Positions 3,060 to 23,449 of a DNA stretch of 41,232 nt are shown in pieces. The number at the start of each line of letters is the position of its first letter. The first letter of the stretch is position 1. The position numbers were made by a program, and so were the translations under genes. The notes beneath the pieces were generated by a model, which was given only the letters and a program-made list of their open reading frames with translations, did not search any database and was not told the DNA's origin. Source of the stretch: a virus; IMG/VR virus record IMGVR_UViG_3300009702_000006, positions 1 through 41,232 of that record; one strand, 5' to 3'.

Positions 3060-3061
3060 AT

Positions 3062-3277
3062 ATGTCTGATGATCTTCGTGAATGGTTAGCTAAACACTGT
3101 GGCAAAGTAGATGCGTATTGGAAAATGCAATTAGACTGGAATAAAAATATGTTACACTGGAAGGATAGAGTAGATATAAAAATATCTTCTTTAGAGAAAA
3201 AAGTTATGTGGCTTACAGGTTTTGCTGCTGCGATCGGTGCTATATTAGGTAATCTAATAAATAGATTTCTAATTTAA
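3062..3277 (+). CDS. Small protein with a C-terminal transmembrane helix (holin-like by position)
   Basis: 71 aa with a hydrophobic C-terminus, VMWLTGFAAAIGAILGNLINRFLI. It is the last gene of the plus arm, where T7-like phages carry a holin. Confidence 0.5.
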   Translation: MSDDLREWLAKHCGKVDAYWKMQLDWNKNMLHWKDRVDIKISSLEKKVMWLTGFAAAIGAILGNLINRFLI

Positions 3278-5886
3278 TACACCGTCACTAGACGGCCACC
3301 CTTTATCCGTTTCAAACGTGGTAAGGGGTGGTTGTCTTTTTCCCAGCTTACATTAGCTAGATATAGAGTAGCTCCTGAACCATAATGACCTTTAACTATT
3401 GGAATTTCTTTTGATACTCTTATTTTACTCCAATTATTTCTTTCTTCAGCGGGAAGCCACAGCATAAATTTGTCATAAAATATTTTAAATTCAATTTTAT
3501 GTCCTTCTGCAGTATGAATTGTTTCAGCAATAAAAGTATCAAGAGGTGATTTATTATAAATCATATGTTCTTGTTTTAATTCAGTTTCGATTACAGGGAT
3601 TGTTAATCTACCTACACGTTGTGGCAATTCAAAATTAATAAGTGTGTACAGAAAGGCAGGTGCTTCATACTCCAATTTCTGTAATAGTTCATACTTAGGA
3701 ATTTCAGTTTCTAAAGCATCAACTTGAATTATTGTAATACGAGTATCACCTGGAAGTATAGGACAGTAATCAGGATTGTTTGCACACTGAATCCAATGTG
3801 TACTATTTATAATATCATAAGGTGTTTTACCTTTTATATGAATAGAAAGCGTTCGTCCGGTGACCCAATCTTTAATTCTATCTGGAGCATGTCCTCGTTT
3901 TGACAGGTTTGTTTCTTCCACGATACAAAATATTCCCGCTGCGAGTTCTCCATTAAAGCCATTCGTATTAGTGAGAGCGTTGTCTGCTCGAATATATCCT
4001 TTTGTGAACAATAAAGACAATGCTTCATGGAAAATAGATTTTCCAGTATTTTGTCCACCAAAAAAGAACAGGTAAGGGGTGGCTTCATTCGGATATTGGA
4101 TACATGCTGCACACCATGCTTGCAAGTAAAGTAAACCGTTAATAATACCGTTATCTTTTGCCCATGTAAGATCTCTGAGAGTTTCATTTAAGCTTTCTCC
4201 ACAATGTTTAAAGACATTATCCCATGTAGGATGTTTACCACGTTCAGGCTCGAAACGCAATTGGGCTGAATTCTTATTCCATTCTCTATTCCCTGGATAT
4301 TCAGCCTGAAAAGGTTTATTAACTAATGACCAATTATTTAAAACTGCAACGCCCAATATATGTTCAACGCTTGCTGGCTTATAACCCTGAGCAAGTAATG
4401 CAGATTTAACATTTGATCTATTTTCTTGAATCCATTTATTTGTAGTATATAAATACCATCCCCAATCTATATGATTTAAAATTACATGACGGATTAATTC
4501 GTCAGGGATATCAGTATCTGGAGGCATACCCTCACGATTTAAAGAATAAAATCTTTCCCATTTTTTCTTTTTTAATGACCACCCTGTTATATATTCATCA
4601 TGTTCTGTAGCATCAAAAGATATTTTTAATCTACCGTCACGTAATTCTCTAATAATACAAGGTCTGATCTTAAAGTGTTCGGGAATATCCACTCTAATCC
4701 CAACTTTATCCAAGGCAAGTAAGCCGTCATTGAGGTTACTAAAGGAGAAATCTTGTTCTCCTTCAACTCCTTTAGAAGTTCTGCAAGCTGTTCGGAAGCT
4801 AGGAAGAGTATTGTAAAAGCATGTTGTCCAACCGGAACTATCATTAAACCAATTGGAACTTTCTGTTGTACCTTTAGAATGACGGCGTACCGCCCATCCT
4901 CCATTATATAGGGGAAAACAAAAACAATTTTGGTCATTTCCTCTATCCTTTCCTGTTGATATAGTGTCATATACACCTTTTAAATTTAATTCTTGAAATG
5001 CTAATTTCAGATCATAGGTATGACAAACCAACATTTGTTTTTTATCATCGAACCACCATAATGCTGGACTATCTTCAAACCATCGTAATAGTTTAATATG
5101 TTCATGATTTAATTCCACAACTCTATTAGAAGCAACAATACTATCAACACTTTGTGTAGGTTTTCCTTTTTGTACAATAACTTTTCTAGAAACTATTTTA
5201 ATATAGTTTCGCCAGTTAGCTGGTATAATAGAGATTGGATCGGCAGTTTTTATACATTTATAACTTTCATTTGGTTTAGCATTACGATGCCAAACCCACA
5301 TATTTCCACCTAGAGTGTCAACTTTACTTTCTAAGTTTAGACCAGTTAATGCAGAAATTTTAGATAGTATAGCTCTAGCTACTGCTGCATGTTCGGTGTG
5401 TGTGGCAATAGTTTCTTTTGATGCTATAAATACATAGATATGCAAACCTGTTCCACTAGTACTAGTGAATAAATTAATAATTGGTAATTCAGCAAGTTTA
5501 GTTTTAATCTCTTGTAATTCATCACCGGTTAAACCTACTTTATGCCCAACAATAGAATCGAAATCAAAGCCGACCCATCGACTACGTTTACAACGCCAAT
5601 CCCATCCAGTCATACCAATAGCTTCAGCATGTTTCGATATATCAAATTTAATTTCTCTATCTATATAGTTTGGATTACGATTCGCATCCCATGGAATTCT
5701 AAAATGTTTCCAGGTTTGTAGACCATCAGTAAAACCTTGCCAACGTAATCCTTCATATTCACCCTGAATAATTTCACCTTCATCACGAGCTACATTAACT
5801 TGTACTTCCATATCTGGACTATAAAGTTTACCCATCTCATAGGGCTGCTGTGATAAAAATTGTTTGATTGCTTCAGTCTTTAACAT
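3274..5886 (-). CDS. Primase-polymerase (AEP) fused to an SF3/D5-type helicase
   Basis: 870 aa. AEP motifs VGFDFDS (DxD) and TSGTGLHIYVF (sGxGxH). Walker A GGQNTGKS and Walker B-like FCIVEE in the C-terminal half. AAGGA SD upstream. Confidence 0.8.
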   Translation of the reverse strand: MLKTEAIKQFLSQQPYEMGKLYSPDMEVQVNVARDEGEIIQGEYEGLRWQGFTDGLQTWKHFRIPWDANRNPNYIDREIKFDISKHAEAIGMTGWDWRCKRSRWVGFDFDSIVGHKVGLTGDELQEIKTKLAELPIINLFTSTSGTGLHIYVFIASKETIATHTEHAAVARAILSKISALTGLNLESKVDTLGGNMWVWHRNAKPNESYKCIKTADPISIIPANWRNYIKIVSRKVIVQKGKPTQSVDSIVASNRVVELNHEHIKLLRWFEDSPALWWFDDKKQMLVCHTYDLKLAFQELNLKGVYDTISTGKDRGNDQNCFCFPLYNGGWAVRRHSKGTTESSNWFNDSSGWTTCFYNTLPSFRTACRTSKGVEGEQDFSFSNLNDGLLALDKVGIRVDIPEHFKIRPCIIRELRDGRLKISFDATEHDEYITGWSLKKKKWERFYSLNREGMPPDTDIPDELIRHVILNHIDWGWYLYTTNKWIQENRSNVKSALLAQGYKPASVEHILGVAVLNNWSLVNKPFQAEYPGNREWNKNSAQLRFEPERGKHPTWDNVFKHCGESLNETLRDLTWAKDNGIINGLLYLQAWCAACIQYPNEATPYLFFFGGQNTGKSIFHEALSLLFTKGYIRADNALTNTNGFNGELAAGIFCIVEETNLSKRGHAPDRIKDWVTGRTLSIHIKGKTPYDIINSTHWIQCANNPDYCPILPGDTRITIIQVDALETEIPKYELLQKLEYEAPAFLYTLINFELPQRVGRLTIPVIETELKQEHMIYNKSPLDTFIAETIHTAEGHKIEFKIFYDKFMLWLPAEERNNWSKIRVSKEIPIVKGHYGSGATLYLANVSWEKDNHPLPRLKRIKGGRLVTVY

Positions 5887-5888
5887 TC

Positions 5889-6128
5889 CTAATCCTTATC
5901 TATCTCTACAATTTTTACTCGACAGATTCTAAGTTTTTCATATTTCGTATCTGTACCACCCCATTCACGCTTTGTTTTCATTAAAATGGGACAATAATAT
6001 TTCCATTGTTCATTAAAAATATCAGAATGACGTTCCCAATCATTTATAGTTTTGTTCCATGCAGCCCATCCATCGAAGTCTCTGCCGAGAACAAGCCGCT
6101 TTCGTTTTGCTTTTGGTTTCTTAATCAT
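5889..6128 (-). CDS. Hypothetical basic protein (start moved to MIKKPKAKRKR)
   Basis: The ORF 5889-6152 is trimmed to an internal ATG that sits just past the stop of the upstream gene. No recognisable domain. Confidence 0.5.
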   Translation of the reverse strand: MIKKPKAKRKRLVLGRDFDGWAAWNKTINDWERHSDIFNEQWKYYCPILMKTKREWGGTDTKYEKLRICRVKIVEIDKD

Positions 6129-6945
6129 TCCATTGTCTCGCAATCCGCACAAAGTGTTCTTGACCAGTCCACAATATCTGTGTGCCCTCGCGATTCTGAA
6201 GTTCAGCCTTTGCTTCGGCTATCGGGAAATAATGTTTCCCGCCGACTTCAACATCCCCGACCATGATGCGATCAATAAGACGATCCGGTCCGACAGTGGC
6301 AATCATATTAGTATTACTTTGTTCGTCTTGTTCTTTATAGGCTACCGCTGTATTGAGAAACTTTGCGTTCGGAATCTCGCTGAAGATTTGTACCAAAAGA
6401 TGTGTAAAGTATCGGCGGTAGGGCAGGGCATCGGTGTTCGGCATGACTCGCGGTAGATTAAACCAAAACTCGACGCCATCGAAATCGCTCAACATCTTCA
6501 CAATTTCAAATATATCGAATGAAAACTCGGTATAGTCGCCTTTGCGAAACGGACCTTCAAGGTCGAGCAGGATTTTACGCTCGCCAAAATCAATCAGCTT
6601 TTGAATCGCCGGGATCATTGTTTCCTGCCAACCTTCAACATCCCACAGGCTATTCGGCGAACCAGACCACTCGTCCATTTGTTCATCATAAGCGACTGGT
6701 GGTGTCATGCCGTAGATGATTTGAAAGCGGTCTTTCAAAGGTAAAAGTTTATCCAATTCGTCGGGCAAGAATCCCCAGCCAGCATACCATTTCGGATGCG
6801 TTGTAACGATCAGCGAGTTAAAGCCGAATAGTTCAGCACCGACAACCACATGTATGATCCCTGGCAGATCGGGCAACTCCGGTTTGCCGGTGATACCTGC
6901 AAGCGGATCATTTATCTGAATCCATGGAATGATATTAGCTGGCAT
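6121..6945 (-). CDS. Hypothetical protein in the higher-GC islet
   Basis: 274 aa with a strong SD (aaagggaggacgaaaATG). GC is visibly higher than in the flanking genes. No motif recognised. Confidence 0.6.
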   Translation of the reverse strand: MPANIIPWIQINDPLAGITGKPELPDLPGIIHVVVGAELFGFNSLIVTTHPKWYAGWGFLPDELDKLLPLKDRFQIIYGMTPPVAYDEQMDEWSGSPNSLWDVEGWQETMIPAIQKLIDFGERKILLDLEGPFRKGDYTEFSFDIFEIVKMLSDFDGVEFWFNLPRVMPNTDALPYRRYFTHLLVQIFSEIPNAKFLNTAVAYKEQDEQSNTNMIATVGPDRLIDRIMVGDVEVGGKHYFPIAEAKAELQNREGTQILWTGQEHFVRIARQWND

Positions 6946-7222
6946 TTTCGTCCTCCCTTTTGTTTTGTTTCTGTTCCATCAAATCTTCGACTAATGCGAA
7001 ATCGCAATTGCAATGCGACGAACCTAGTAAAGCAATGCACCAACTCTTATGGCCGATATATTGTTTCCATTCTTTCCACGCTCTTCGTCGTGCGTTCTGT
7101 TCAGCTTCGCGGATTGTCTTGGCCAGGAATTCGACGAACGCATCGTCAGGATCAACTCCTTCACTGACGCCAGTCTCGCACCAATCCTTATATATCTGTC
7201 TGGCAATCTGTTCAGGCGTCAT
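6935..7222 (-). CDS. Hypothetical protein in the higher-GC islet
   Basis: 95 aa with SD ggagaggaataaaATG. Cys/His cluster HKSWC...SSHCNC near the C-terminus. Confidence 0.6.
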   Translation of the reverse strand: MTPEQIARQIYKDWCETGVSEGVDPDDAFVEFLAKTIREAEQNARRRAWKEWKQYIGHKSWCIALLGSSHCNCDFALVEDLMEQKQNKREDENAS

Positions 7223-7223
7223 T

Positions 7224-7484
7224 TTATTCCTCTCCTAATAATTGATCTAAACAATATATATAACCACAAATATCTATTAAATTATCTCTTTTGTGTTTTC
7301 CCGCTTCCCGTGCTATTTTAAATAAAATCATACAAATAGCTATGTCACTATGTGTTAATTTCATACCTAGGTATTCACTCCATAATCGTCGTATTCTGTT
7401 AAAGGATTCATCTATAGGTCCATATTCCTTTCTTTTAGTATCATCAACTAGTTTTTTTACTTCGTCTAAAATACTATCAGACAT
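7224..7484 (-). CDS. Conserved phage protein, DUF6378-like
   Basis: 86 aa. The pattern KEYG...F.RI..LWS.YLG..LT..DIA.CMILFKIAR....HKRDNLIDICGY matches my memory of that family. SD aaaggagaagtcactATG. Confidence 0.55.
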   Translation of the reverse strand: MSDSILDEVKKLVDDTKRKEYGPIDESFNRIRRLWSEYLGMKLTHSDIAICMILFKIAREAGKHKRDNLIDICGYIYCLDQLLGEE

Positions 7485-8355
7485 AGTGACTTCTCCTTTG
7501 TTCGTCGCCTAGAGTTCTTTTATAATATGTGCAAACTGGAGCACATTTACATACTGTATTCCATTTCTCACACGTCCATTTACTAGGTCGTGGTTGTTGA
7601 ATCTCTGCATAATATAGATTACTTGAAACTGCTTCCCACATCTGTTCTACTTTTTTCATTAATTTTAAACGATAGGATCGTGGAATGAAACCTTCGTGCA
7701 CTACAAAAATTAATTTATTCGGTTGATAACAAATTTCATGTATCTTATATTTAGCTTCTGTTCTACAAAGTAGCCAATTATAAAAACATAATTGTACTAA
7801 CCAATAATCTTTATCAATTTGTTCATCTATTTCGTCTGGAGCAATTACTTGTCCTGAATCCGTTAACAGATTCCAATCAATACGTTTACTATAACCTGTT
7901 GTCGGATATGCTTTGGAATTAAAACCTCTACATTTAAAATCTTCAGGGTAGCCATCAACAATAAGGTCTAATCTACCTAGAATAGGTACACCACCAATCC
8001 GTCCATATAATTCCTGTTCTACTTTTAGATCAATAGCATCCATAAAGGGTTCACATAACTTTGCTTTTATATATGCTTTAGCTGCCATCTTTGCAACAGT
8101 TCTATTTTCATCATCAATATTAGCTAATGCAATAGATAAATTAGTATGTGGTGCATCAAGATTTCTTTTTTGTACTATATAATCTATGACATATGCACTG
8201 AAAGCATTGCCTATTTGTGCCGGTCTAGTATATTCCCCAGCTGGCATTTGGAGACCTGACAGTTTAGACATAAAAACTTTATACTGACAACTTTCCCACT
8301 GTAAATATGTTGATGGGCTTATATATGGTAACTGTTTAAATACTTGCAGTTGCAT
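7477..8355 (-). CDS. PD-(D/E)XK nuclease, Cas4/RecB-like, with Fe-S-type cysteines
   Basis: 292 aa. GRLDLIVDG...EDFKCRG (D...D/ExK). One N-terminal Cys (ESCQYK) plus C-terminal C-x6-C-x-C-x3-C. Confidence 0.65.
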   Translation of the reverse strand: MQLQVFKQLPYISPSTYLQWESCQYKVFMSKLSGLQMPAGEYTRPAQIGNAFSAYVIDYIVQKRNLDAPHTNLSIALANIDDENRTVAKMAAKAYIKAKLCEPFMDAIDLKVEQELYGRIGGVPILGRLDLIVDGYPEDFKCRGFNSKAYPTTGYSKRIDWNLLTDSGQVIAPDEIDEQIDKDYWLVQLCFYNWLLCRTEAKYKIHEICYQPNKLIFVVHEGFIPRSYRLKLMKKVEQMWEAVSSNLYYAEIQQPRPSKWTCEKWNTVCKCAPVCTYYKRTLGDEQRRSHYV

Positions 8356-8677
8356 AGCAATCTCCTAAATAGTTTGTTAATCCTATCCATCCATTCGTTG
8401 GATCAGTAAAAAGAGAATAAATATGTCCATTAATATTTAAACCCTTTATAGCAATCACTTGTGGCTCTTCAATTAAATCATACATTTTTAATAGCTCATC
8501 CCTATAAATTACATAACGTTTATCTATAGTTAGATTAATTGCTAAAAATCTATTCTTATTCAGAGTTCGTGTATGAATTAGAATCCGCGTACCATTAAGT
8601 TTATCGGTTCTAGTGCCATAATATTCAGGTTTAATTTCCCAGACTTGACCTAGCCTAATCTTCGGTATTGTCTCCAA
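8336..8677 (-). CDS. Hypothetical protein
   Basis: 113-aa ORF, tightly packed in the operon with overlapping ends. Confidence 0.55.
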   Translation of the reverse strand: METIPKIRLGQVWEIKPEYYGTRTDKLNGTRILIHTRTLNKNRFLAINLTIDKRYVIYRDELLKMYDLIEEPQVIAIKGLNINGHIYSLFTDPTNGWIGLTNYLGDCYATASI

Positions 8678-8991
8678 TTGTCATTCTCCTGAAATAAAAG
8701 TTCATAGTCTTTTTCGTCACGCAAGACATATACTTTTTGACCATATTTATTCATTTTAGCAAAGAAAATCTCTTGTGAATATCTGAGTTTTTCTTTTGGT
8801 GCTTTAGTCTCAATCCACCGCAAGCCATGCAAGATATGTAAGCAGAGTAAATCCGGCAAGCCAGATTGATATTTCCCACCATGTAATTTTTTGATCATCC
8901 ATCCTCGTGCCTCCATATATCTTCGTAAACGCAATGCACCTTTAGCTTCTGGGCCTGTACGAACAGTATTACGCGGACGTTTATAGTTCAT
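8650..8991 (-). CDS. VRR-NUC family nuclease
   Basis: 113 aa. SGLPDLLCL...RWIETKAPKEKL fits the VRR-NUC PD...ExK core. Confidence 0.6.
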   Translation of the reverse strand: MNYKRPRNTVRTGPEAKGALRLRRYMEARGWMIKKLHGGKYQSGLPDLLCLHILHGLRWIETKAPKEKLRYSQEIFFAKMNKYGQKVYVLRDEKDYELLFQENDNWRQYRRLG

Positions 8992-8994
8992 TGT

Positions 8995-9336
8995 TTATCT
9001 TTTTCGTGTTGGTTTAGGTCTTAGACTCCATTCATACTTAACGTCACTACTTAATTGTCGTAATTGTTTAACCTCTTTACTTGACGCTGACAGTAACTTA
9101 AGATTCTTCCATGTTGATTTATTGAAAATCTTCCAAGTCTTTTTCATAATCTTTAATCTATTGAGAAACGGACCATGAATAAACTTATATGCTTTCCTTA
9201 AATTCTCATAGCTACTAGTCATCTCCTCAGCCCAGGAGAGAAGTTTAATTTTATTCAGATTCGACTCCTCAATTAAATCCTCATAGATGGTAATCGTACG
9301 CATAATCTCAAATTCCATTTCGTCTTTACTGGCCAT
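8995..9336 (-). CDS. Hypothetical protein
   Basis: 113-aa ORF. Its start overlaps the stop of the upstream small ORF (TAATG). Confidence 0.55.
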   Translation of the reverse strand: MASKDEMEFEIMRTITIYEDLIEESNLNKIKLLSWAEEMTSSYENLRKAYKFIHGPFLNRLKIMKKTWKIFNKSTWKNLKLLSASSKEVKQLRQLSSDVKYEWSLRPKPTRKR

Positions 9337-9515: not shown

Positions 9516-9885
9516 AGCCTACATCCAATACTTTTTTTATATTTGGTTTAGAATGACCTTGTTCTTTTAATATTTTACCATCCTTTCTTCTTAGTTTACC
9601 AGATTTTAACATATTATTCTCGTGAACTTCATCGAAAAAATACTCCAGGTCTATACCGAAAGCAATAGCTGCTCCATATGTTACATAGAGTAAATCACAC
9701 AACGCATCAATTACTTCAATAATATTATTTTGACGCAACGCATCCTCTAATTCACACACTTCTTCTTTAATTAATTTTAATCTTAGATCGATAATAGGCT
9801 GCTGCGTTATATCAATATCATCAGGAATTCTTTGTTCCATTTTTCGCATGAAATTAAGAACTAATTGCTGTGGGTAATGCATCAC
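9502..9885 (-). CDS. MazG-like nucleotide pyrophosphohydrolase
   Basis: 127 aa. LRLKLIKEEVCELEDAL...EVIDALCDLLYVTYGAA...DEVHENNMLK is the typical all-alpha MazG-like signature. Confidence 0.7.
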   Translation of the reverse strand: MMHYPQQLVLNFMRKMEQRIPDDIDITQQPIIDLRLKLIKEEVCELEDALRQNNIIEVIDALCDLLYVTYGAAIAFGIDLEYFFDEVHENNMLKSGKLRRKDGKILKEQGHSKPNIKKVLDVGYGKI

Positions 9886-12047
9886 TTCTTACTCCAATCT
9901 TCAAGGTTTGTTTTCCATTCCATTTTAATTAATGGAACCAACGGTTTATAAGCATCAACTGTTTGATTAACAATTGATTTTATTTTATCAGTTACTTCAG
10001 GAATATGCACACACATAATTTCATCATGGATGTTGAAAGGTTGTACAATCCATTTATGAATCCCTGATGGTTGTACATCCCATATTCGTCGCTGTACTTC
10101 CTTAGTAATTTCTGCTCCGGTTGATTGTATAACATGGTTAGCCGCTGCTCTCATATTACGAGCCTGTAATTGAAAGACTGTACTATAAAGAGCTGATTGT
10201 GTCGCACCTTTAATTGTTTGTTCACGATTGCGACGATAGATTTTTCCATATACATTAAAACTATCCGGAGGATGTTGAGCTAATTTAAAGAGTAATCTAA
10301 CGATGTTATTCTCCAACGTGAAATAACGTCTGAAGCCAAGAAGAGATTCAACAAAGTCATCAGGTTCATGCCAGATAATCTCTGTTCCCACTCCTTTAGG
10401 CTGACTAATGGAGCAAAACCTGTCAAATATACTTCGTCTAGCACTATCGATTCCCGGGTATTTTTCCATGAATTTTTTATAGTTTTCTTCCGCAGTGTCC
10501 TCAGAAATACCAGTAGACTCAGCAAGTTTTTTGGGTTGGGCTCCGTATAAGAGGGCAAAAGCAGCTGTCTTACTGGGGTGATAAAGATTTGTTTCTTTGT
10601 TTTTAGTGTCAATAATGTATTGATAGGGCAATTGATATAATGCCGATCCCAACATTGCATGAAATGATTTACCTGCTCGCAAATCAGACCGCAAATTGTC
10701 GTCTTTATAAGCTGCATCTGCTAATGTTACCTCAAAAGAGTCAAAGTCTCCACCACTTAATATATAACCTTTATCAGCTAGCGTGAATAGTTCACGAATT
10801 TCTTTGATTCTAGGAATACCTTGAGGATTTATACTACCACTTTTTCTCCCTGCTTTTACTTCTTCACTACTCCCACCAGACATACGACCAGACTTAGTTC
10901 CTATAATTTTAAAGTCTGGATTAAAGCGTCCTACTTCAAGAAGTTTATTAAGTAATTCTATTTCTTTAAGAGCACTCCTTATTTTAATTATTTGTTTCGC
11001 TCTTTGTCCTGTTTCAGTTTCCCATTTAGATAAAGCTTCTAAAGTTTTCTTACTAGTGTCAACAATTAGGGCTGATTCATCTTCACTAGCAACTTCTTTG
11101 AGCCACTGTCGAACCTGAATGTGAGAATTAGGGTTAATACCGCAGGCACTTTCACTCCTTTTTTCTTCCATTCGATTAATTGTTCTGCTTCTCGACAAAG
11201 TATACCCTCGCCATCTGCTACTTCCAACGCAGCCAGCGAGAATAGAGTCGGTGTCTCCGGCTGAGGGCTCTCCAAAGTGATGGTATAATCTTTGTAAGAA
11301 TATAACATCTTGTTCTGCATAGCTTCTGGCATGTTTATTCTCCTTCCAGAATTGTATATGTCGATGAATTACAGGTAACCAGTTTATATTATACGGATTA
11401 TATTCTGGTTCCTTTTCTGGCCAAAACGATTTAGGCACAGGAAATTCTATAGTGTTAACCTTTAAACATTCTGCTGCAAGAGCTTTCAATCCAGATGATG
11501 CTGCAAAGTGTAGTTTGATATTACAAAACTTAGGTTCATCTTCAATCAGTTCTTCCTGCCATTCATAGCCACCCGCTCTACGTTGAAAATATATATTTGG
11601 TAATCTAATTCGTTTAGTTAATTCTTTTGTTAGAATAGGGGCTAGGTCAGCTGGCACCTTTTTAATCACAATGTCATCACGATCCATCAATGTTTGCCAC
11701 GGCCCTTTGCGGGCGTGTAACATTAAATCTAAACATGATTTAGGTTTTAAACACCACTGAACTGGTTGAGTAATACTAATTTTAGCTAAGTCATAAGGCT
11801 TTGGCGGCTCATCTTTATTCTTGATCTGATATAAAAGATTATATAATTTATTAACATGGAACCAGTCAAAGCTTAGATTAAATGCACAAACTTCATTGTT
11901 CGTAAACATTTCTAGCAATGCCATTGTTTCTTTTATTGGTGAGTTAAACACTTCATGAACAATAACTTCACCATCATCTTCTGCATACTGAATAATTACA
12001 ATTGGACCTGTCAGTCCACAAGTTTCAGTATCAAAGAAGATCATCAT
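9882..12047 (-). CDS. Family A DNA polymerase with 3'-5' exonuclease domain (T7-like)
   Basis: 721 aa. ExoI FFDTETCGL at the N-terminus, motif A GGDFDSFEVTLAD, motif B KTAAFALLYGAQPKKLA, motif C HDEIMC. Confidence 0.9.
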   Translation of the reverse strand: MMIFFDTETCGLTGPIVIIQYAEDDGEVIVHEVFNSPIKETMALLEMFTNNEVCAFNLSFDWFHVNKLYNLLYQIKNKDEPPKPYDLAKISITQPVQWCLKPKSCLDLMLHARKGPWQTLMDRDDIVIKKVPADLAPILTKELTKRIRLPNIYFQRRAGGYEWQEELIEDEPKFCNIKLHFAASSGLKALAAECLKVNTIEFPVPKSFWPEKEPEYNPYNINWLPVIHRHIQFWKENKHARSYAEQDVIFLQRLYHHFGEPSAGDTDSILAGCVGSSRWRGYTLSRSRTINRMEEKRSESACGINPNSHIQVRQWLKEVASEDESALIVDTSKKTLEALSKWETETGQRAKQIIKIRSALKEIELLNKLLEVGRFNPDFKIIGTKSGRMSGGSSEEVKAGRKSGSINPQGIPRIKEIRELFTLADKGYILSGGDFDSFEVTLADAAYKDDNLRSDLRAGKSFHAMLGSALYQLPYQYIIDTKNKETNLYHPSKTAAFALLYGAQPKKLAESTGISEDTAEENYKKFMEKYPGIDSARRSIFDRFCSISQPKGVGTEIIWHEPDDFVESLLGFRRYFTLENNIVRLLFKLAQHPPDSFNVYGKIYRRNREQTIKGATQSALYSTVFQLQARNMRAAANHVIQSTGAEITKEVQRRIWDVQPSGIHKWIVQPFNIHDEIMCVHIPEVTDKIKSIVNQTVDAYKPLVPLIKMEWKTNLEDWSKK

Positions 12048-17539: not shown

Positions 17540-17756
17540 GGTACATAAACTCCTTAAAATGCGCGAAAGTGTCTTTTTTATTTAAAACGAATGTAGCATA
17601 GGCTACAATCGGGAAGTTTGATGGCCCAAACAATTTTGGGTAGGTACAATGGGTCAGTCCATCGGGGTAAATGTAGTGCGAATAATCCGAACGTAAGTCC
17701 AGTAAACACAAGGGGTTACGTTCAAAAACATAGGCCGTTAGTACTATTCTATATGT

Positions 17757-17788
17757 TAGATATAGAAATAGAAATAGAAATAGAAATA
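17757..17788. repeat. Hexanucleotide microsatellite (TAGAAA)n
   Basis: tagata followed by four perfect tagaaa units (17763-17786), in a poorly coding gap. Confidence 0.9.
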
Positions 17789-17892
17789 ATAAGAGAATAA
17801 GGGGCGAAATATTGGCCTATTTCTTGTTTTTCTGGTTTTTGTGTGTCAATGGACATATTGACCGTATCAAATGAAGATTGATTTTTGTAATT

Positions 17893-18375
17893 CTAGAAAA
17901 TAGCTCCAGACAAATTGGCTCCATACAAATTGGCTCCAGACAAATTAGCTTCAGACAGATTAGCTATAATTAAACTGGCTTCAGTTAAGTCTGCTCTAGA
18001 TAAATCTGCCTTAGTCAAATTGGCCCCAGACAAATTGGCTTGATATAAGTTAGTTGAAATTAGAATGGCCCCAAATAAATAGGTTCCACATAAATCTACT
18101 CTAGATAAATCTGCTCTGAATAAATCTGCTTCGGATAAATCTACTCTAAATAAATCTGCTCCGGATAAATCAGCTCCTGACAAATTGGCTCCGGATAAAT
18201 TAGCTAAATATAAGTCAGTTGAAATTAGAATGGCTCCGGACAAATTGGCTCCGGACAAATTGGCTAGATATAAATTGGCTCCTGACAAATCAGCTCCTGA
18301 CAAATTGGCTCCGGACAAATCTGCTCCGGATAAATTGTAATATCGAAGATCGAGATTGTGAAGGTCGAGTGCCAT
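17893..18375 (-). CDS. Pentapeptide-repeat protein (160 aa)
   Basis: Almost the whole protein is A(D/N)LSG-type pentapeptides (ADLSGANLSGADLSG...). GGAG-containing SD upstream (gaaggagaaaccaATG). Confidence 0.85.
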   Translation of the reverse strand: MALDLHNLDLRYYNLSGADLSGANLSGADLSGANLYLANLSGANLSGAILISTDLYLANLSGANLSGADLSGADLFRVDLSEADLFRADLSRVDLCGTYLFGAILISTNLYQANLSGANLTKADLSRADLTEASLIIANLSEANLSGANLYGANLSGAIF

Positions 18376-18387
18376 TGGTTTCTCCTT

Positions 18388-18720
18388 CTAGAAAATGGTA
18401 TCGTCAAAATCTTCGTCTGTTAAATAGGCTCCGGTTAAATCAGCTCCAGATAAATTAGTTCCAGTTAAATTGGCTCCAGACAAATAGGCTCCAGATAAAT
18501 TAGCTTCAGTTAAATCTGCTAAGTATAAATCAGTTGAGATTAGAATAGCTTCAGGTAAATCAGCTCCAGTTAAATCAGCTCCAGTTAAATCAGCTTCAGA
18601 TAAATCAGTTCTAAATAAATTGGCTCCAGACAAATCGGTTCCGGATAAATTGGCTCCCGACAAATCTGCTCCAGACAAATTGTAATGTCGAAGATCGAGA
18701 TTGTGAAGGTCGAGTGCCAT
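18388..18720 (-). CDS. Pentapeptide-repeat protein (110 aa), tandem paralog of 17893-18375
   Basis: Same MALDLHNLDLR-YNLSGADLSGANLSG N-terminus. The 5' end plus SD region is 68/72 nt identical to the neighbour (18316-18387 vs 18661-18732). Confidence 0.85.
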   Translation of the reverse strand: MALDLHNLDLRHYNLSGADLSGANLSGTDLSGANLFRTDLSEADLTGADLTGADLPEAILISTDLYLADLTEANLSGAYLSGANLTGTNLSGADLTGAYLTDEDFDDTIF

Positions 18721-18733
18721 TTGTTTCTCCTTT

Positions 18734-18964
18734 TTATTTTACCAAAGAGTTCAATTCTTTCTTGATCCTTCTTGCAGTTTCACCCCTATAGGATTGTGCG
18801 TTGGCAAGGAAATAAATAATAATTCCTTTTGCATCGTCCAACCCATAATGGTCATCGACACTATGCAGGGACGCCATGGCGTCTAGATAGGGTTTGGCAC
18901 CAAAATAAACATTCTTCCAATCGTTGCGAATTTCCTGTGCGATTTTGTAGATAGGTCGAGTCAT
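18734..18964 (-). CDS. Hypothetical 76-aa protein, paralog A of 20410-20640
   Basis: Start trimmed to MTRPIYKIAQEIR (SD aaaaggagacctagaATG). 43/76 residues identical to paralog B by hand alignment. Confidence 0.6.
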   Translation of the reverse strand: MTRPIYKIAQEIRNDWKNVYFGAKPYLDAMASLHSVDDHYGLDDAKGIIIYFLANAQSYRGETARRIKKELNSLVK

Positions 18965-18996
18965 TCTAGGTCTCCTTTTTGGATGGTTCATGGAAC

Positions 18997-19056: not shown

Positions 19057-19245
19057 TTATTCCAAACCACCTTTCCTGTGAGGGTGAGAGATAACACAAA
19101 TAACACCATTTTGTATAAAAATGGTGTTGTTACGTTTTGTTTTTGACCGTGTTTTGTGTCCGAGAAAACGCATATAGCGTTGTCCGGATTTTTCGAGTTC
19201 TAGTTCACGCCGCAGCAGTTTACGTTCGTTTTTTTCGTGTTTCAT
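19057..19245 (-). CDS. Small basic hypothetical protein (62 aa)
   Basis: The ATG overlaps the stop of the upstream 57-aa gene as ATGA (19242-19245). Lys/Arg-rich. Confidence 0.5.
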   Translation of the reverse strand: MKHEKNERKLLRRELELEKSGQRYMRFLGHKTRSKTKRNNTIFIQNGVICVISHPHRKGGLE

Positions 19246-19415
19246 ACTTTGATAACTTTCCGTTTTGTTGGGGGTGTTGGGTCGATATATGTTGTCCGTG
19301 TGCGACCGCGATAATATATAATCACGGGTTTGGTGGGTTTGGTGCCAGCTAGTGATAAGAACCAGTCAATAATGGCTCTATTCTCCGACGGTTCGTTAGA
19401 AACGTAAGTTTCCAT
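19242..19415 (-). CDS. Small hypothetical protein (57 aa; start trimmed to METYVSNEP)
   Basis: SD aaaaaggagaaaaataATG. The longer listed ORF (to 19565) reads through the 12-bp repeat of the neighbouring gene in another frame. Confidence 0.5.
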   Translation of the reverse strand: METYVSNEPSENRAIIDWFLSLAGTKPTKPVIIYYRGRTRTTYIDPTPPTKRKVIKV

Positions 19416-19442
19416 TATTTTTCTCCTTTTTGAAATAGGAAA

Positions 19443-19466
19443 CGTATATCTTGCGAACGGCATAGG
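19443..19466. repeat. Left arm of a perfect 24-bp inverted repeat
   Basis: cgtatatcttgcgaacggcatagg is the exact reverse complement of 20014-20037. Confidence 0.95.
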
Positions 19467-19482
19467 GGTTGTGGGTTGTTGG

Positions 19483-19980
19483 TTAGTTTTCGACAGGTTC
19501 GTCGACAGGTTCGTCGACAGGTTCGTTGACAGGTTCGTGGTTGAGGGTGCCCAAAAGGTAGACACGGGCTTGTTCCCTCAATTCCTTGTTGGGTTCCTTG
19601 CATGCCAGTTTGAAAGCTTTACGAACCGCTTTCACGTTTGGGGTCATGCCGAGAAGGTGCTTTGTTGCCCATGGGATGTTTTTCCCAGTGATGCTATAGT
19701 CAATTTCACAATCGTTGGGGACAGTGAATCGACTCAGCTTGCTGTCTAGCAAGTTTCGGGCGGCATCTTCGAGGTCTGACGCGGCAGTGTACAACCAGTC
19801 CGCGAACCCGTTGGGATTGTTGGATCCCTTTGTGTAGATGGACAACGCTTTGTCAAGGGCAGGACCAATTGGACATTCACTATTGTGATTGTCCAAACTG
19901 GCGATTAGGTCGCCTAGTGCGACCATAGCTTCGGCTTGTGTTGCCGTTCCGGTGTTTAGATTCTTTGCGAGATTGAACAT
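19483..19980 (-). CDS. Hypothetical 165-aa protein with a C-terminal (EPVD/N)4 acidic repeat
   Basis: ATG start with aaaggaaataggtgaccctATG upstream. It ends HEPVNEPVDEPVDEPVEN. The inverted repeat brackets it exactly. Confidence 0.6.
   Translation of the reverse strand: MFNLAKNLNTGTATQAEAMVALGDLIASLDNHNSECPIGPALDKALSIYTKGSNNPNGFADWLYTAASDLEDAARNLLDSKLSRFTVPNDCEIDYSITGKNIPWATKHLLGMTPNVKAVRKAFKLACKEPNKELREQARVYLLGTLNHEPVNEPVDEPVDEPVEN
19491..19538. repeat. 12-bp tandem repeat, 4 copies (cgacaggttcgt)
   Basis: Three perfect copies and one with a single mismatch. In frame, encoding the EPVD repeats. Confidence 0.9.
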
Positions 19981-20013
19981 AGGGTCACCTATTTCCTTTC
20001 GGTTAAGGGTAGT

Positions 20014-20037
20014 CCTATGCCGTTCGCAAGATATACG
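20014..20037. repeat. Right arm of the perfect 24-bp inverted repeat
   Basis: cctatgccgttcgcaagatatacg is the reverse complement of 19443-19466. Confidence 0.95.
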
Positions 20038-20387
20038 CGAGAAATTGTAGGGCTATGTAGGCATATCGGTAACTTGTGCTATGATGCGTTTTTTCGGCCT
20101 TTGCAGACCTAAGTCTATCGCACCATAGCGGCAGTTTCGCCCGTAACGTATGTACTACCCATACGCTACTGTGCAGTTGGCCAGACCGTACGTTTATACC
20201 GTACTCGGTTCGCCCGTAGGCTCGCGACTCGGGGGTAGAGAGTATCTGCACACTCTCTATTACTACCGCTACAATCCGGTAGCATGGCCTTATACCGATA
20301 TTCAGTTGTTAACGACTTCGTGGGCGTCTACCACCTAGGCAGACCCGCCGGCGACCGCGAGGATAAACTCGCCGTCGCCGGCGTTTT
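20038..20387 (+). ncRNA. Candidate structured plus-strand RNA, antisense to the early arm (hypothesis)
   Basis: About 370 nt with no SD-preceded ORF on either strand and high GC. Hairpins at 20078-20129, 20147-20165, 20236-20259 and 20263-20282. A possible extended -10 (TGcTATGAT, 20077-20085). It ends in tandem + strand terminators. Confidence 0.3.
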
Positions 20388-20407
20388 CCACGGCGTCGCC
20401 GTGGTTT
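20347..20407 (+). terminator. Tandem GC-rich hairpins each followed by a T-run on the + strand
   Basis: GCCGGCGAC-c-GCGAG-gataaa-CTCGC-c-GTCGCCGGC then gTTTT. This is followed by CCACGGC-gtc-GCCGTGG then TTT. On the minus strand neither hairpin is followed by a T-run. Confidence 0.55.
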
Positions 20408-20409
20408 CG

Positions 20410-20640
20410 TCATCCGAGCATCCCCTTCAACTCGGCCTTGATGCGGCGAGCGTCAGGACCTCTCCAAGTTTGAGCGTTGGACAGGAAGTAGAGTACGATA
20501 CTCCGTGCATCGTCAAGCCCGTACTTGTCCTTGACCGAGGACACACACCCCATAGCCGATAGGTAGGGTTTGGCGAAGGGACTAACGCGTCCCCACTTCT
20601 CGCGGACTTCATCCGCTATCACGTACAAGGGTCTAGTCAT
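20410..20640 (-). CDS. Hypothetical 76-aa protein, paralog B of 18734-18964 (high GC)
   Basis: Start trimmed to MTRPLYVIADEVR (SD ggagagttgcaATG). Same length as paralog A and collinear with it. Confidence 0.6.
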   Translation of the reverse strand: MTRPLYVIADEVREKWGRVSPFAKPYLSAMGCVSSVKDKYGLDDARSIVLYFLSNAQTWRGPDARRIKAELKGMLG

Positions 20641-20784
20641 TGCAACTCTCCAAAAAAACCACAATATCCGGTAGGCCTATTGCAAGTTGCGTGCCAGACA
20701 GTTATACTGTAGTTATTATCTTTATACTTTATATTTCCTGTAGTAGTGAACAATATCCGTTCATACTGTAAATCAGGGGGCGGC

Positions 20785-20896
20785 TGTCTGCCAAAATGGC
20801 AGACACATTATCGGACCCTGCCATAATGACAGTAAAACGTCATTTATAGGCTCTAATCGACGCTTTGTGACATTGTGAAATCGGCCATAATGACAG
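20785..20896. promoter_or_regulatory. Three copies of the TGCCAWAATGRCAG-like motif; the first is a perfect 8-bp-arm palindrome
   Basis: tgtctgcc aaaat ggcagaca at 20785-20805. tgccataatgacag at 20819-20832. ggccataatgacag at 20883-20896, the last inside hairpin tcggcc-n9-ggccga. Confidence 0.5.
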
Positions 20897-21048
20897 GCCG
20901 ATACGGTTTAAGTAGTACTTGATTCTTTTTCAGTAATAGTGTATACTTATAAAGTAATACTGAAACCGTGGCCGAATTGTCGAGAAGTCTATCCAGATAC
21001 CCTATCTTCACAATTTTGCGCCAAATACCTAGTTTCACAGGGTCGAAA

Positions 21049-21226
21049 TAAATTATAACTTTAATCCAGTATCGCTTTAATAAAGTATTACTTTAACCGG
21101 CTGCCGCCCCGCGACCTACAGTATCACTTTAATAAAGTGATACTTTAATAAAGTATAACTTTAAGCGGCGGGGCATAAAGTGATACTTGAATACGGAATC
21201 GCGACTCGCGTTAAAGTGGCACTTTA
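21049..21226. promoter_or_regulatory. Phased array of eight TAAAGT-N3-ACTTTA palindromes (operator, iteron, centromere or pac-type sites)
   Basis: Perfect copies at 21081, 21133, 21149 and 21212. One-mismatch copies at 21049, 21117 and 21176. A degenerate copy at 21065. They form two blocks of three units on an exact 16-bp register, each unit separated by a single A, plus two single units. GC-rich spacers carry CGCGAC three times (21110, 21200, 21230). Confidence 0.7.
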
Positions 21227-21364
21227 AGCCGCGACACTTGTTGCGTTTTCTTCCTTCTCCTCCTCAGTGTCGTTCGGTGGGCAATGGGGTAGGGTGTTCG
21301 ATAGGATTCCGAAAGGTGCTGAAGTATATATACCAGTATATCGACGTTGAGTCGTTAAAATATT

Positions 21365-21721: not shown

Positions 21722-21935
21722 AATAACTTATTCATTAAATACTGCAACCAGTGGTGAATTATTTGAAGAGTTATCAAAGCGTTGTCGTAATTGTTTATTT
21801 ATTAGTTCAGTAGACTCACGATGTAAAGGTGATGCCGAAGTTTATACATTAACTAGTGGTTCAGATAGTGAAATATTAGGGCTTATAAAACATGCTGAAA
21901 TTATGGTTATGAAATGCTTGATCCCCTTGACATAA
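21711..21935 (+). CDS. Hypothetical protein
   Basis: 74-aa ORF overlapping both neighbours. Confidence 0.45.
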   Translation: MRREITYSLNTATSGELFEELSKRCRNCLFISSVDSRCKGDAEVYTLTSGSDSEILGLIKHAEIMVMKCLIPLT

Positions 21936-23449
21936 AACTTATAAAAGAGTACAAAAGGCGTAGTACACATAAAAGTTGTACATATATACCTATGCCTCAT
22001 CAACTGGATTACCATAAATCGCATTCAATTTATAGGTTATTATTTGGTGGAAATCAATCGGGAAAGTCCCATGCAGCCGCTGCTGATTGTGCGTGGTATG
22101 CAACAGGTAGACACCCGCATGGAGATAATATTGAAGGTAGAGATGTTGAAATTTGGGTTATCAGTGCAGAATATTCTACAATTAAAACTGGTATATATCG
22201 GCATTTAATAGCTTTAATACCAGATTGGGACATTGTAGAAAAAGGTCCTAGGATTCCGCAGCAGCCTATACCTTCATATTTAAAAATTAGAAGAAAGGAT
22301 AAATATGAAACGACAATCACTTTCCTATCCGCGAAGGGTGAGGCCCGCGAAAAGTTCCAGGCAGCCGCTGTGGATTACTTCTATATTGATGAAGAAATAC
22401 AATCAGGTATTTGGGAAGAATTGGAAGCCCGAACTCTGGCTACTGGAGGCATGTTTAGTATTTCTGCTACTCTTGTGGAGTCTTATGATTGGATATTAAA
22501 CTTAGAGAGAGAAGCAGAAAGTGGTAATCCACGAGTATTTTTAACACGACTAAATACTGAAAATAATAAATATTTAGATAAAGAACGTGTTCAATACTTA
22601 AAAAATAAATGGTCAGATGAAACGAAGGAGTATAGATTTTATGGCAAGGCCCGTAGGGTACAAGGCATTGTATATTCGTCCTTCGACGAAGAACGCCATG
22701 TTATTAAACCATTTAAAGTACCCCCAGAATGGCCCAGGTGGTGTGCCATTGATCCAGGTATTAGAACCTGTGCAGTGTTGTGGATTACAGTTGACAACTA
22801 TGACCGGGCCTATGTCTATCGTGAGTTGTATGCCAAGAATGAACCACTCTGGCAGGTGGCCATACAAATAAAATTATTTGAAGGTTGGCAATTAAATCAA
22901 GAATTATCTTTAGAATTTAAACACTATGTTTGGGAATTAAAGAATCCTGAAATACCAGCAGAGAATATGATACTTAGATTGATTGACCCTAAAGCAAGAG
23001 CACGGAGTGAAGCTGGCGAGGATTCTATTATTTCACAATTATATGAACGCTATGGTTTGATTGTTACACCAGCAGATAATAGTTTACGTCCTGGTCTTGA
23101 AGATTGTAGATTTTGGCTTGAAGATTTAGCAGATGGTAAACCTGCGTTACAGGTATTTAATACCTGTGAAAACTTTTTAGAAGAAAGACGACGTTATAAA
23201 TATCGGCCACCTACTTCAAAATTAAATAGTAATGAACCTATTGAAGATCCAATCCGTAAACATAATCATTTAATGGATTGCTGGCGATATATTGCACGAG
23301 AAAAACCTTCATGGAATAAAAAAGAATTATATACCGACCAGATTGGTTCGACACCTTTATACAGGCGTAAGACAGGATCAGAATTATTACAAGAACGATT
23401 AGCTAAAGAAAATGAGGAACCTAACGAATGGCTGGGAATAGAATGGTAA
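21914..23449 (+). CDS. terL: Terminase large subunit
   Basis: 511 aa. Walker A GGNQSGKS, Walker B DYFYIDEE, and a nuclease-domain Asp in CAIDPGIRT. Confidence 0.85.
   Translation: MLDPLDIKLIKEYKRRSTHKSCTYIPMPHQLDYHKSHSIYRLLFGGNQSGKSHAAAADCAWYATGRHPHGDNIEGRDVEIWVISAEYSTIKTGIYRHLIALIPDWDIVEKGPRIPQQPIPSYLKIRRKDKYETTITFLSAKGEAREKFQAAAVDYFYIDEEIQSGIWEELEARTLATGGMFSISATLVESYDWILNLEREAESGNPRVFLTRLNTENNKYLDKERVQYLKNKWSDETKEYRFYGKARRVQGIVYSSFDEERHVIKPFKVPPEWPRWCAIDPGIRTCAVLWITVDNYDRAYVYRELYAKNEPLWQVAIQIKLFEGWQLNQELSLEFKHYVWELKNPEIPAENMILRLIDPKARARSEAGEDSIISQLYERYGLIVTPADNSLRPGLEDCRFWLEDLADGKPALQVFNTCENFLEERRRYKYRPPTSKLNSNEPIEDPIRKHNHLMDCWRYIAREKPSWNKKELYTDQIGSTPLYRRKTGSELLQERLAKENEEPNEWLGIEW

Follow-up and report, generated by a model that had tools for sequence, protein, structure and literature searches.

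Mimicry of nucleic acids by the pentapeptide-repeat fold has its precedents in MfpA and Qnr, and the gyrase-directed mimics of this family all dimerise head-to-head through C-terminal helices; in QnrB1, loops A and B are needed for activity (PMC8145042). Phages encode pentapeptide-repeat proteins (PRPs) as well. Those of cultured phages are stand-alone proteins of ~90-250 aa, encoded in early or accessory regions and of unknown function (PMC12282133), a description that also fits the two genes considered here. These genes, PRP110 and PRP160, lie side by side in the IMG/VR virus record IMGVR_UViG_3300009702_000006, the 41,232 nucleotides of which were analysed in full (positions 1 to 41,232; hereafter ‘the window’). 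Taken together, it is very probable that they are real genes, that their products belong to the pentapeptide-repeat fold class and that the two are paralogues of one another. Below we set out the evidence for these statements and then weigh, far more tentatively, the possibility that the two proteins serve as early decoys for a protein that handles nucleic acids.

Two genes of unbroken pentapeptide repeats

PRP110 (18388..18720, minus strand) encodes 110 aa in 22 pentapeptide units, carries a net charge of -17 and terminates in the acidic tail TDEDFDDTIF; PRP160 (17893..18375, minus strand) encodes 160 aa in 32 units, has a net charge of -10 and ends in SGAIF. An earlier reading of the letters without database searches (the sequence-only reading) had described adjacent genes of 160 and 110 aa made almost purely of A(D/N)LSG repeats, and this description holds at the exact coordinates. 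The pentapeptide register runs unbroken from Met1 to the last residue in both proteins, amounting to 5.5 four-unit coils in PRP110 and 8 coils in PRP160, and the longest strict A(D/N)LXX runs extend over 17 and 28 units, respectively. The Pfam family PF00805 matches PRP160 with 190.9 bits (E 1.7e-57) and PRP110 with 151.7 bits (E 3.1e-45), against a cut-off of 20.2 bits. Neither protein has a signal peptide or a loop insertion.

Across the 828 nt of the pair only the annotated frame is open, with 2 stops compared to 10-40 in each of the other five frames. Identical peptides are spelled in many ways: over both genes the unit SGANL occurs nine times in six DNA spellings and SGADL six times in six. 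Across units the central Leu codon never changes at its middle base, and the variation among units of the same peptide is synonymous. In both genes an AGGAG box is located 6 nt 5' of the ATG, that of PRP160 (18382-18386) standing immediately 3' of the PRP110 stop codon (TAGAAGGAG). The single open frame, the synonymous spellings and the Pfam matches therefore identify protein-coding genes and no mere repeat at the DNA level. Although Tandem Repeats Finder reports arrays of period 15/30/45/60 across the region and the opposite strand also holds short open reading frames (ORFs), it is extremely unlikely, given these three lines of evidence and the proper spacing of AGGAG before both start codons, that a 15-nt tandem DNA repeat (for example of iterons) is open in one frame by chance.

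An old tandem duplication with a conserved 5' module

BLAST finds one internal repeat, in which 18615-18732 matches 18270-18387 (both minus strand) at 108 of 118 nt (91.5%). Each copy comprises the AGGAG box (18727-18731 in the case of PRP110) and codons 1-35 of its gene. The identity of 68/72 nt that had been pointed out at the 5' ends is reproduced when the frame -11 to +61 is used. The 35 shared codons differ by seven synonymous and two non-synonymous changes, corresponding to a synonymous divergence (dS) of 0.35 and a non-synonymous divergence (dN) of 0.026; the resulting dN/dS of 0.07 indicates purifying selection on the 5' module, and a dS of 0.35 means that the module is not young. Past codon 35 every diagonal of the unit-by-unit matrix lies at the ~60% repeat background. 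The bodies of the two proteins are 51% identical, and when the PRP110 body is used as query, PRP160 ranks 275th of 457 pentapeptide-repeat proteins. The sequence-only reading had proposed a recent duplication followed by a change in repeat number. Duplication and number change are borne out, the tracts being unequal in length by 10 units (32 versus 22), but the dS value and the divergence of the bodies speak against a recent date.

The paralogy itself rests on the shared Shine–Dalgarno sequence and 35 N-terminal residues, on a common IF-TAG-AA ending, on the motif AILIST(D/N)LY and on the internal duplicate of this motif in PRP160. AILIST(D/N)LY is present in both PRPs and in none of 616 other pentapeptide-repeat proteins examined. 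In PRP110 it lies within AILISTDLYLADLTE (residues 58-72; 18505..18549, minus strand) and in PRP160 within AILISTDLYLANLSG (residues 48-62; 18190..18234, minus strand), which is identical to the PRP110 copy at 36 of 45 nt and, like it, private to the window pair. A second copy inside PRP160, AILISTNLYQANLSG (residues 103-117; 18025..18069, minus strand), falls on the offset-11 diagonal: units 10-13 and 21-24 of this gene, 11 units apart, agree at 50 of 60 nt. Both genes also contain an FR(T/V)DL-SEADL pair, the order of which relative to the AILIST block differs between them, and the 3' ends are alike, as both finish with ...ATTTTCTAGAA, i.e. ...IF followed by the stop codon.

The best reading of these patterns is an old whole-gene tandem duplication, after which the tract would have been reshaped by unequal recombination between 15-nt units, with the ribosome-binding site and the first 35 codons probably kept near-identical through gene conversion and/or purifying selection or constraint. 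Since the bodies have been rearranged and resemble one another no more than they resemble unrelated PRPs, the high 5' identity calls for gene conversion or local constraint beyond what a young duplication would provide. Tract changes in 15-bp steps are documented on short time scales by the phages L and ST64T, which are >99.9% identical and in which one of the two sole differences is the loss of a single pentapeptide unit from the early-left orf232 (10.1101/2020.10.05.325894). The splitting of one gene in two, as proposed for Np275/276, was considered and rejected, since each copy has its own ribosome-binding site, its own start codon and the same 35 N-terminal residues. We also note a promoter-like TTCACA-17-TACAAT element (10/12) inside both 5' coding modules, at 18707-18679 and 18362-18334 (minus strand); such sites are a possible extra reason for the conservation of the modules at the nucleotide level.

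Predicted fold and family membership

AlphaFold2 models were built from single sequences. Both proteins are predicted as beta-helices with one short strand per 5 residues, which is the outcome that the sequence-only reading had expected of a structure prediction. The PRP160 model has a mean predicted local distance difference test score (pLDDT) of 74, with residues 1-100 mostly >85; the PRP110 model has a mean of 79 (78.9), with dips at residues 60-63 and 107-110. A Foldseek comparison of the PRP160 model with the Protein Data Bank (PDB) returned only pentapeptide-repeat (Rfr) structures as top matches, and MfpA and Qnr are among the matches, including PDB 6ZT5, the complex of MfpA with GyrB47. 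Both PRPs are hence modelled, and predicted by us, as right-handed quadrilateral beta-helices.

Sequence comparison places designed solenoids related to Np275/276, Np275/276 themselves and HetL (All3740) nearest among solved structures, with E-values of 1e-25 to 1e-48; Qnr (E 1e-10 to 1e-13) and MfpA (1e-5) follow well behind. The curated cyanobacterial families are nevertheless missed: against the HetL model NF047416 of NCBIfam PRP160 scores 104.2 and PRP110 84.4 bits (cut-off 260), and against the Alr5209 model NF052603 PRP160 reaches 121 bits, summed over three stretches, and PRP110 82 bits (cut-off 125). Both proteins match phrog_7713 (E 3.3e-40 and 2.2e-29), a family annotated as of ‘unknown function’. 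Neither protein has caps. Homology to Ocr or ArdA was not found, Pfam returning pentapeptide families only, and the PADLOC scan for defence systems gave no match.

Acidity and the C-terminal tail of PRP110

With 19 acidic and 2 basic residues, PRP110 carries -0.155 charges per residue, a value lower than the 1st percentile of 222 viral pentapeptide-repeat ORFs and close to the minimum (-0.158) of 240 database matches. Among the early-region ORFs checked in the window phage and two relatives, no other protein is as acidic. Counted from the sequence, Asp occupies the exposed i-1 position in ~12 of the 22 units of PRP110 and in 13 of the 32 units of PRP160.

The last ten residues of PRP110 (TDEDFDDTIF-COOH; 18391..18420, minus strand) depart from the repeat rule by placing a Glu at an inward position. 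This acidic tail is all that PRP110 has at its C-terminus; the model shows a weak, low-confidence helix at residues 102-107 and a pLDDT <50 at residues 107-110. The tail resembles the C-terminal tip of single-stranded DNA-binding protein (SSB): the E. coli SSB ends in ...MDFDDDIPF, as confirmed in PDB 1EQQ, and PRP110 in DEDFDDTIF. We treat this resemblance in sequence as a lead only. A tail of this kind was seen in 1 of the 616 other pentapeptide-repeat proteins; the sole other sampled PRP that has one, ending in ...YLDEDAIF, is encoded at 5116-6492 of a GVMAG giant-virus contig (L061).

Position in the genome and distribution among phages

The window carries a 123-bp exact direct repeat at both termini (1-123 and 41110-41232) and is therefore a circularly assembled, complete genome of ~41.1 kb, that of a tailed phage. 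Its plus-strand half encodes the large terminase subunit (TerL; 21914-23449), the portal, the major head protein and other virion proteins, and its minus-strand half a family-A DNA polymerase (9882-12047), an SNF2-type helicase, a primase, a DNA methyltransferase, a ParB-like protein and a tRNA-Leu, the tRNA being the sole match in an Rfam scan of the window. A contig of the European Nucleotide Archive (ENA) sample ERZ27249683 is 99.97% identical to the window across 20.5 kb; none of the six single-nucleotide polymorphisms (SNPs) between them falls within PRP110 or PRP160. No near match exists among 50,697 GenBank phage records, and terminase and polymerase are at most 25% identical to their counterparts in cultured phages. 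The PRP pair lies within the first ~3 kb of a leftward transcription unit that starts at a divergent intergenic region (20.7-21.4 kb) and proceeds through p84, p165, p85, PRP110 and PRP160; it is thus placed between that intergenic region and the replication genes. The GC content of the pair (0.38) matches that of the phage (0.36), which argues that the genes are not a fresh import. Their closest cellular relatives are scattered over many phyla.

Terminase homologues in IMG/VR define a family of 41-47-kb phages with TerL proteins 35-64% identical to that of the window, and queries with ParB and the major capsid protein found no relatives there. In two relatives (L002 and L007; TerL 64% and 57% identical) the early region can be read, L003-L006 starting too near the terminase gene. 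In both of them the interval from ParB to terminase holds 8-9 unrelated small ORFs and neither a pentapeptide-repeat gene nor a homologue of p85, and a third relative has a like layout of small ORFs. The PRP pair is lineage-specific cargo in a hypervariable early region. In a database of 5.8 billion proteins we found generic longer PRPs only, none with the N-terminal signature of the window proteins; the private peptides (MALDLHNL, TDEDFDDT and others) found nothing above 67% identity in IMG/VR, GTDB genomes and JGI metagenomes, and an exact cluster look-up returned nothing.

Pentapeptide-repeat genes as such are common in phages. A tblastn search with PRP110 finds them in 437 GenBank phage records, the hosts of which include Mycobacterium, Rheinheimera, Staphylococcus, Listeria, Salmonella, Ralstonia, Caulobacter and Microcystis, and in IMG/VR the peptides of a single query matched >500 stretches. 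The Salmonella P22-like phage ST104 carries its PRP gene, orf19, directly after ral in the early-left operon together with sieB, gene 17, kil and abc1/2; in the E. coli phage P64441 the PRP gene stands among small ORFs just upstream of the primase/helicase gene. We surveyed 149 IMG/VR loci with such genes, selected by similarity to the window proteins, so that the counts are descriptive and do not represent frequencies; these loci hold 222 pentapeptide-repeat ORFs as well as 41 distinct tandem pairs on one strand, of which 22 have N- or C-terminal 25 residues at least 60% identical and an unequal number of repeats. At L121 (IMGVR_UViG_3300021956_000002, 896-6675) three paralogues of 124, 174 and 249 aa, with identical or nearly identical N-terminal 25 residues, diverge from the terminase gene, an arrangement that the window shares. 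At L126 (IMGVR_UViG_3300040960_002597, 3149-7234), a cyanophage fragment, five bare acidic PRPs of 98-210 aa that share their N- and C-terminal ends stand directly after psbA (photosystem II D1; E 1.6e-201). Eight tandem copies are present at L031 and seven at L059.

Possible functions

The Rfr beta-helix rises by 4.8 Å per four-repeat coil. On the predicted fold, PRP110 would be a rod ~26 Å long and PRP160 one of ~38 Å, both about as wide as B-DNA. Because signal peptides are absent, the two proteins are presumably cytoplasmic, and they may be made early in infection. In this setting they could act as acidic protein decoys: by a combination of electrostatic and shape mimicry they would bind to, and occupy, the surface through which a DNA-handling protein of the host or the phage contacts nucleic acid. 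PRP110, with its net charge of -17, would be the stronger decoy candidate, and the two length variants might amount to two different ‘footprints’. Candidate targets would include a topoisomerase, a restriction or other defence nuclease, and a replication or repair factor.

This reading as an early cytoplasmic decoy for a nucleic-acid-handling protein is the one that we pursue, and we do so tentatively; the idea of DNA mimicry raised in the sequence-only reading is a plausible hypothesis, a beta-helix being predicted and both proteins being net negative. Speaking for it are the early accessory position of the genes, analogous to that of the PRP genes of ST104, P64441 and L121, the extreme acidity of PRP110, the purifying selection on the shared N-terminal coil and the mimicry precedents of the fold. 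A considerable number of observations weigh against it. PRP160, at -0.063 charges per residue, is moderately acidic only and unremarkable in this respect, and a monomer spans the equivalent of just ~8 (PRP110) or 11 (PRP160) bp. The closest solved relatives are HetL, Np275/276 and Alr5209 and not the mimics. Against the Qnr model NF033086 PRP160 scores 55.9 and PRP110 34.2 bits (cut-off 240), and against the MfpA model NF000349 48.7 and 46.7 bits (cut-off 360), so that both NCBIfam thresholds are missed. No insertion that would correspond to the Qnr loops A and B interrupts either repeat register, and the C-terminal dimerisation helix is absent, the repeats of PRP160 reaching the last residue. 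Literature searches turned up no phage pentapeptide-repeat protein with a tested function. McbG and QnrB did not inhibit BREX, which means that mimicry by this fold is not generic (PMC7261183), and HetL acts by binding HetR, i.e. by a protein–protein contact (PMC7476756).

The last of these points leads to a second possibility, which we consider doubtful and yet worth serious attention, namely that the proteins are specific protein–protein adaptors or inhibitors and do not mimic nucleic acid at all. The faces of the beta-helix and the N-terminal coil MALDLHNLDLR(Y/H)YNL would bind a host regulator or an immune sensor, with the models being HetL, which shields HetR from PatS, and pentapeptide-repeat domains that serve as sensor or scaffold modules. 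The best named relatives of the window proteins fit this proposal, HetL matching with E 7e-34 to PDB 3DU1 and the scores of 104 and 84 bits and the Alr5209 family falling just short of its cut-off (121 versus 125 bits); strong purifying selection acts on the first 35 residues of both copies, and a review of the family concludes that several PRPs act through direct protein contact (PMC8145042). However, all named families remain below their cut-offs, so that orthology to HetL does not follow, no partner can be named, and the extreme acidity of PRP110 would be superfluous in an adaptor.

It is unlikely that the pair is a mere passenger, a cell-derived PRP gene that was duplicated and, with no specific role in infection, has persisted by drift in an accessory region that tolerates it. 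Its absence from the two relatives with a readable early region, the lack of an orthologue in the databases searched and the extreme abundance of PRP genes in bacteria are all compatible with such an origin. Drift is harder to reconcile with the dN/dS of 0.07 in the shared module, with a frame that has stayed intact over 54 repeats in many synonymous spellings, with the retention of a strong ribosome-binding site by both genes and with a GC content adapted to that of the phage, unlike the neighbouring GC-rich island; moreover, arrays of tandem copies whose ends are conserved are found again in unrelated phages.

A topoisomerase modulator of the Qnr/MfpA type, entering gyrase or topo IV as a mimic of the T-segment or G-segment and tuning the supercoiling of host or phage DNA, is decidedly unlikely, even though this is the sole experimentally established mechanism for stand-alone bacterial PRPs (PMC8145042, PMC10886550). 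The structures of MfpA and Qnr occur among the fold matches, and Igy and Gip are examples of small early phage proteins that target gyrase (PMC10886550). Against this, the curated Qnr and MfpA thresholds are missed 4-10x, the window proteins have neither the dimerisation helix nor the loops A and B that QnrB1 needs (PMC8145042), and they reach half to three-quarters of the usual length.

The tail of PRP110 raises the further prospect of an action at the replisome, in which it would imitate the C-terminal tip of SSB, or the acidic tail of a phage SSB such as T7 gp2.5, and dock the rod onto proteins that bind SSB or onto the family-A polymerase that the phage itself encodes. We judge this to be improbable. 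It accords with the sequence of the tail, which breaks the repeat rule, with the low pLDDT at the tip and with the rarity of such tails among other PRPs; SSB binds its partners through its last 9 residues (PMC7913777), and gp2.5 contacts replication proteins with its acidic tail (PMC10359462). Furthermore, no SSB was recognised among the scanned ORFs of the phage, which does encode a family-A polymerase. On the other hand, one short motif is involved, and it has no statistical support; a phmmer search started from the tail returns no SSB, the IPF proline is absent, and PRP160 shares only the final IF, the Phe of which would equally suit the core position of an ordinary last repeat. There is likewise only a slim chance that a broader picture applies, in which phage PRPs form a widespread and so far unrecognised class of early decoys that diversify by tandem duplication and 15-nt slippage, with constant docking ends and varied rod length, and in which PRP110 would be a dual mimic whose acidic duplex-like rod and SSB-type tip capture host SSB-interacting repair and replication enzymes or dock on the phage polymerase.

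The value of the pair lies in its simplicity. It is about as minimal as the PRP family gets, consisting of pure repeats without caps and with one copy extremely acidic, and it is therefore a clean test case for phage PRPs as nucleic-acid mimics directed against host enzymes or defences. Sets of tandem paralogues whose ends are constant and whose repeat number varies recur in unrelated phages, including a cyanophage fragment that carries psbA, which suggests, as far as sequence comparison goes, a general mode of diversification. It is these length-variable arrays and the SSB-like tail that most deserve further study; if the decoy proposal or the SSB-tip proposal were true, a new fold would join the repertoire of anti-defence and host takeover.

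Neighbouring features of the window

Directly upstream of the pair, p85 (18734..18991, minus strand) belongs to phrog_13953, a family of small proteins of unknown function that is common in Gordonia and Mycobacterium phages; its stop ends 13 nt before the PRP110 start. Together with p84 (20410-20664, minus strand), to which it is 56% identical and which falls into the same family, it makes up another pair of duplicates within this operon. The start codon of p84 is TTG, and the ENA contig has no gene call for it. A link between p85 and pentapeptide-repeat genes was considered and dismissed, since the p85 homologues in actinophages and in phage DSL-LC05 do not adjoin any. Between p165 and p85, at 19099-19131, lies a hairpin with a 14-bp stem and T-runs on both strands, resembling a bidirectional terminator.

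On the 3' side of PRP160 a non-coding gap of ~350 nt (17540..17892, minus strand) contains a (TAGAAA)5 microsatellite (17757-17788) and a terminator-like hairpin (17607-17592), and is likely to mark the end of the PRP transcription unit. One of the SNPs between the window and the ENA contig is located at 17800, 12 nt past the end of (TAGAAA)5. Further on, at 17253-17225 (minus strand) and just upstream of the gene for the ParB-like protein, stands a promoter that matches the sigma-70 consensus perfectly, at 12/12 positions (TTGACA, 17 nt, TATAAT, with the TG of an extended -10 element); the ParB-like module is probably read by a host RNA polymerase of the sigma-70 type.

The region from ~19200 to 21300 is a GC-rich island (0.47 overall, 0.54 in p84 and 0.50 in p165, compared to 0.36 for the genome), the composition of which suggests a recent foreign insertion next to the PRP genes. 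Within it, a 12-nt tandem repeat, TCGACAGGTTCG, is present in four copies at 19490-19538 and encodes the C-terminal EPV(D/N)-repeat tail of a 165-aa ORF (19483-19980); in an overlapping ORF (19242-19565) this repeat is translated as (TNLS)n. Between the early (minus) and structural (plus) modules, the divergent intergenic region holds five or six copies of a 16-nt AGTATCACTTTAATAA-like motif at 21047-21164, which are candidate operators, promoters or origin iterons. Elsewhere in the window, three consecutive ORFs of 113 aa at 8336-9336 were compared as possible paralogues and proved not to be.

Comparison with known systems

With MfpA, Qnr, AlbG and McbG the window proteins would have in common the quadrilateral beta-helix, a rod with net negative charge and DNA-like width, and the nature of small cytoplasmic proteins (PMC8145042). 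They differ in size, with 110 and 160 aa compared to ~180-220 aa, in scoring 4-10x below the curated cut-offs, in having no C-terminal helix and no loops, and in a gene context that is free of resistance or toxin-immunity genes.

To our knowledge, anti-restriction activity has been reported for no pentapeptide-repeat protein. The proteins T7 Ocr, ArdA and T4 Arn are small, very acidic, early and encoded in accessory regions, and the charge density of PRP110 is comparable to theirs; their folds, however, are unrelated to the window PRPs, and no similarity in sequence or profile was found.

Among solved structures, cyanobacterial HetL (All3740), Np275/Np276 and Alr5209 show the highest similarity to the window proteins (E 1e-25 to 7e-34), and Np275 and Np276 are likewise encoded by two small adjacent PRP genes (PMC8145042). 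Whereas these two are thought to represent one gene that has been split, the window copies each have their own start and the same N-terminus. The cyanobacterial proteins are cellular, possess caps or loops and are of unknown function or, in the case of HetL, bind HetR, and the window proteins miss every curated cut-off.

The small phage PRPs of phrog_7713 and those annotated in cultured phages such as ST104 (orf19), the Rheinheimera Barba phages, the Listeria P100-like phages (CKA15_017) and the Caulobacter phage RW (gp016) belong to the same repeat family as the window pair. Identity to them does not exceed 67%, which is the repeat background, and the pair lacks capping helices; its private features are the N-terminal coil MALDLHNLDL..., the AILIST motif and the acidic tail DFDDTIF. 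The arrays at L121, L126, L031 and L059 resemble the window in their adjacent same-strand paralogues with conserved ends and varied repeat number. They belong to other sequence families, most with a helical N-cap (KELNEIL..H..WL) and a globular C-terminal domain, whereas the window has two copies only and essentially no non-repeat sequence. The window pair is thus an orphan addition to a known and common kind of phage gene.

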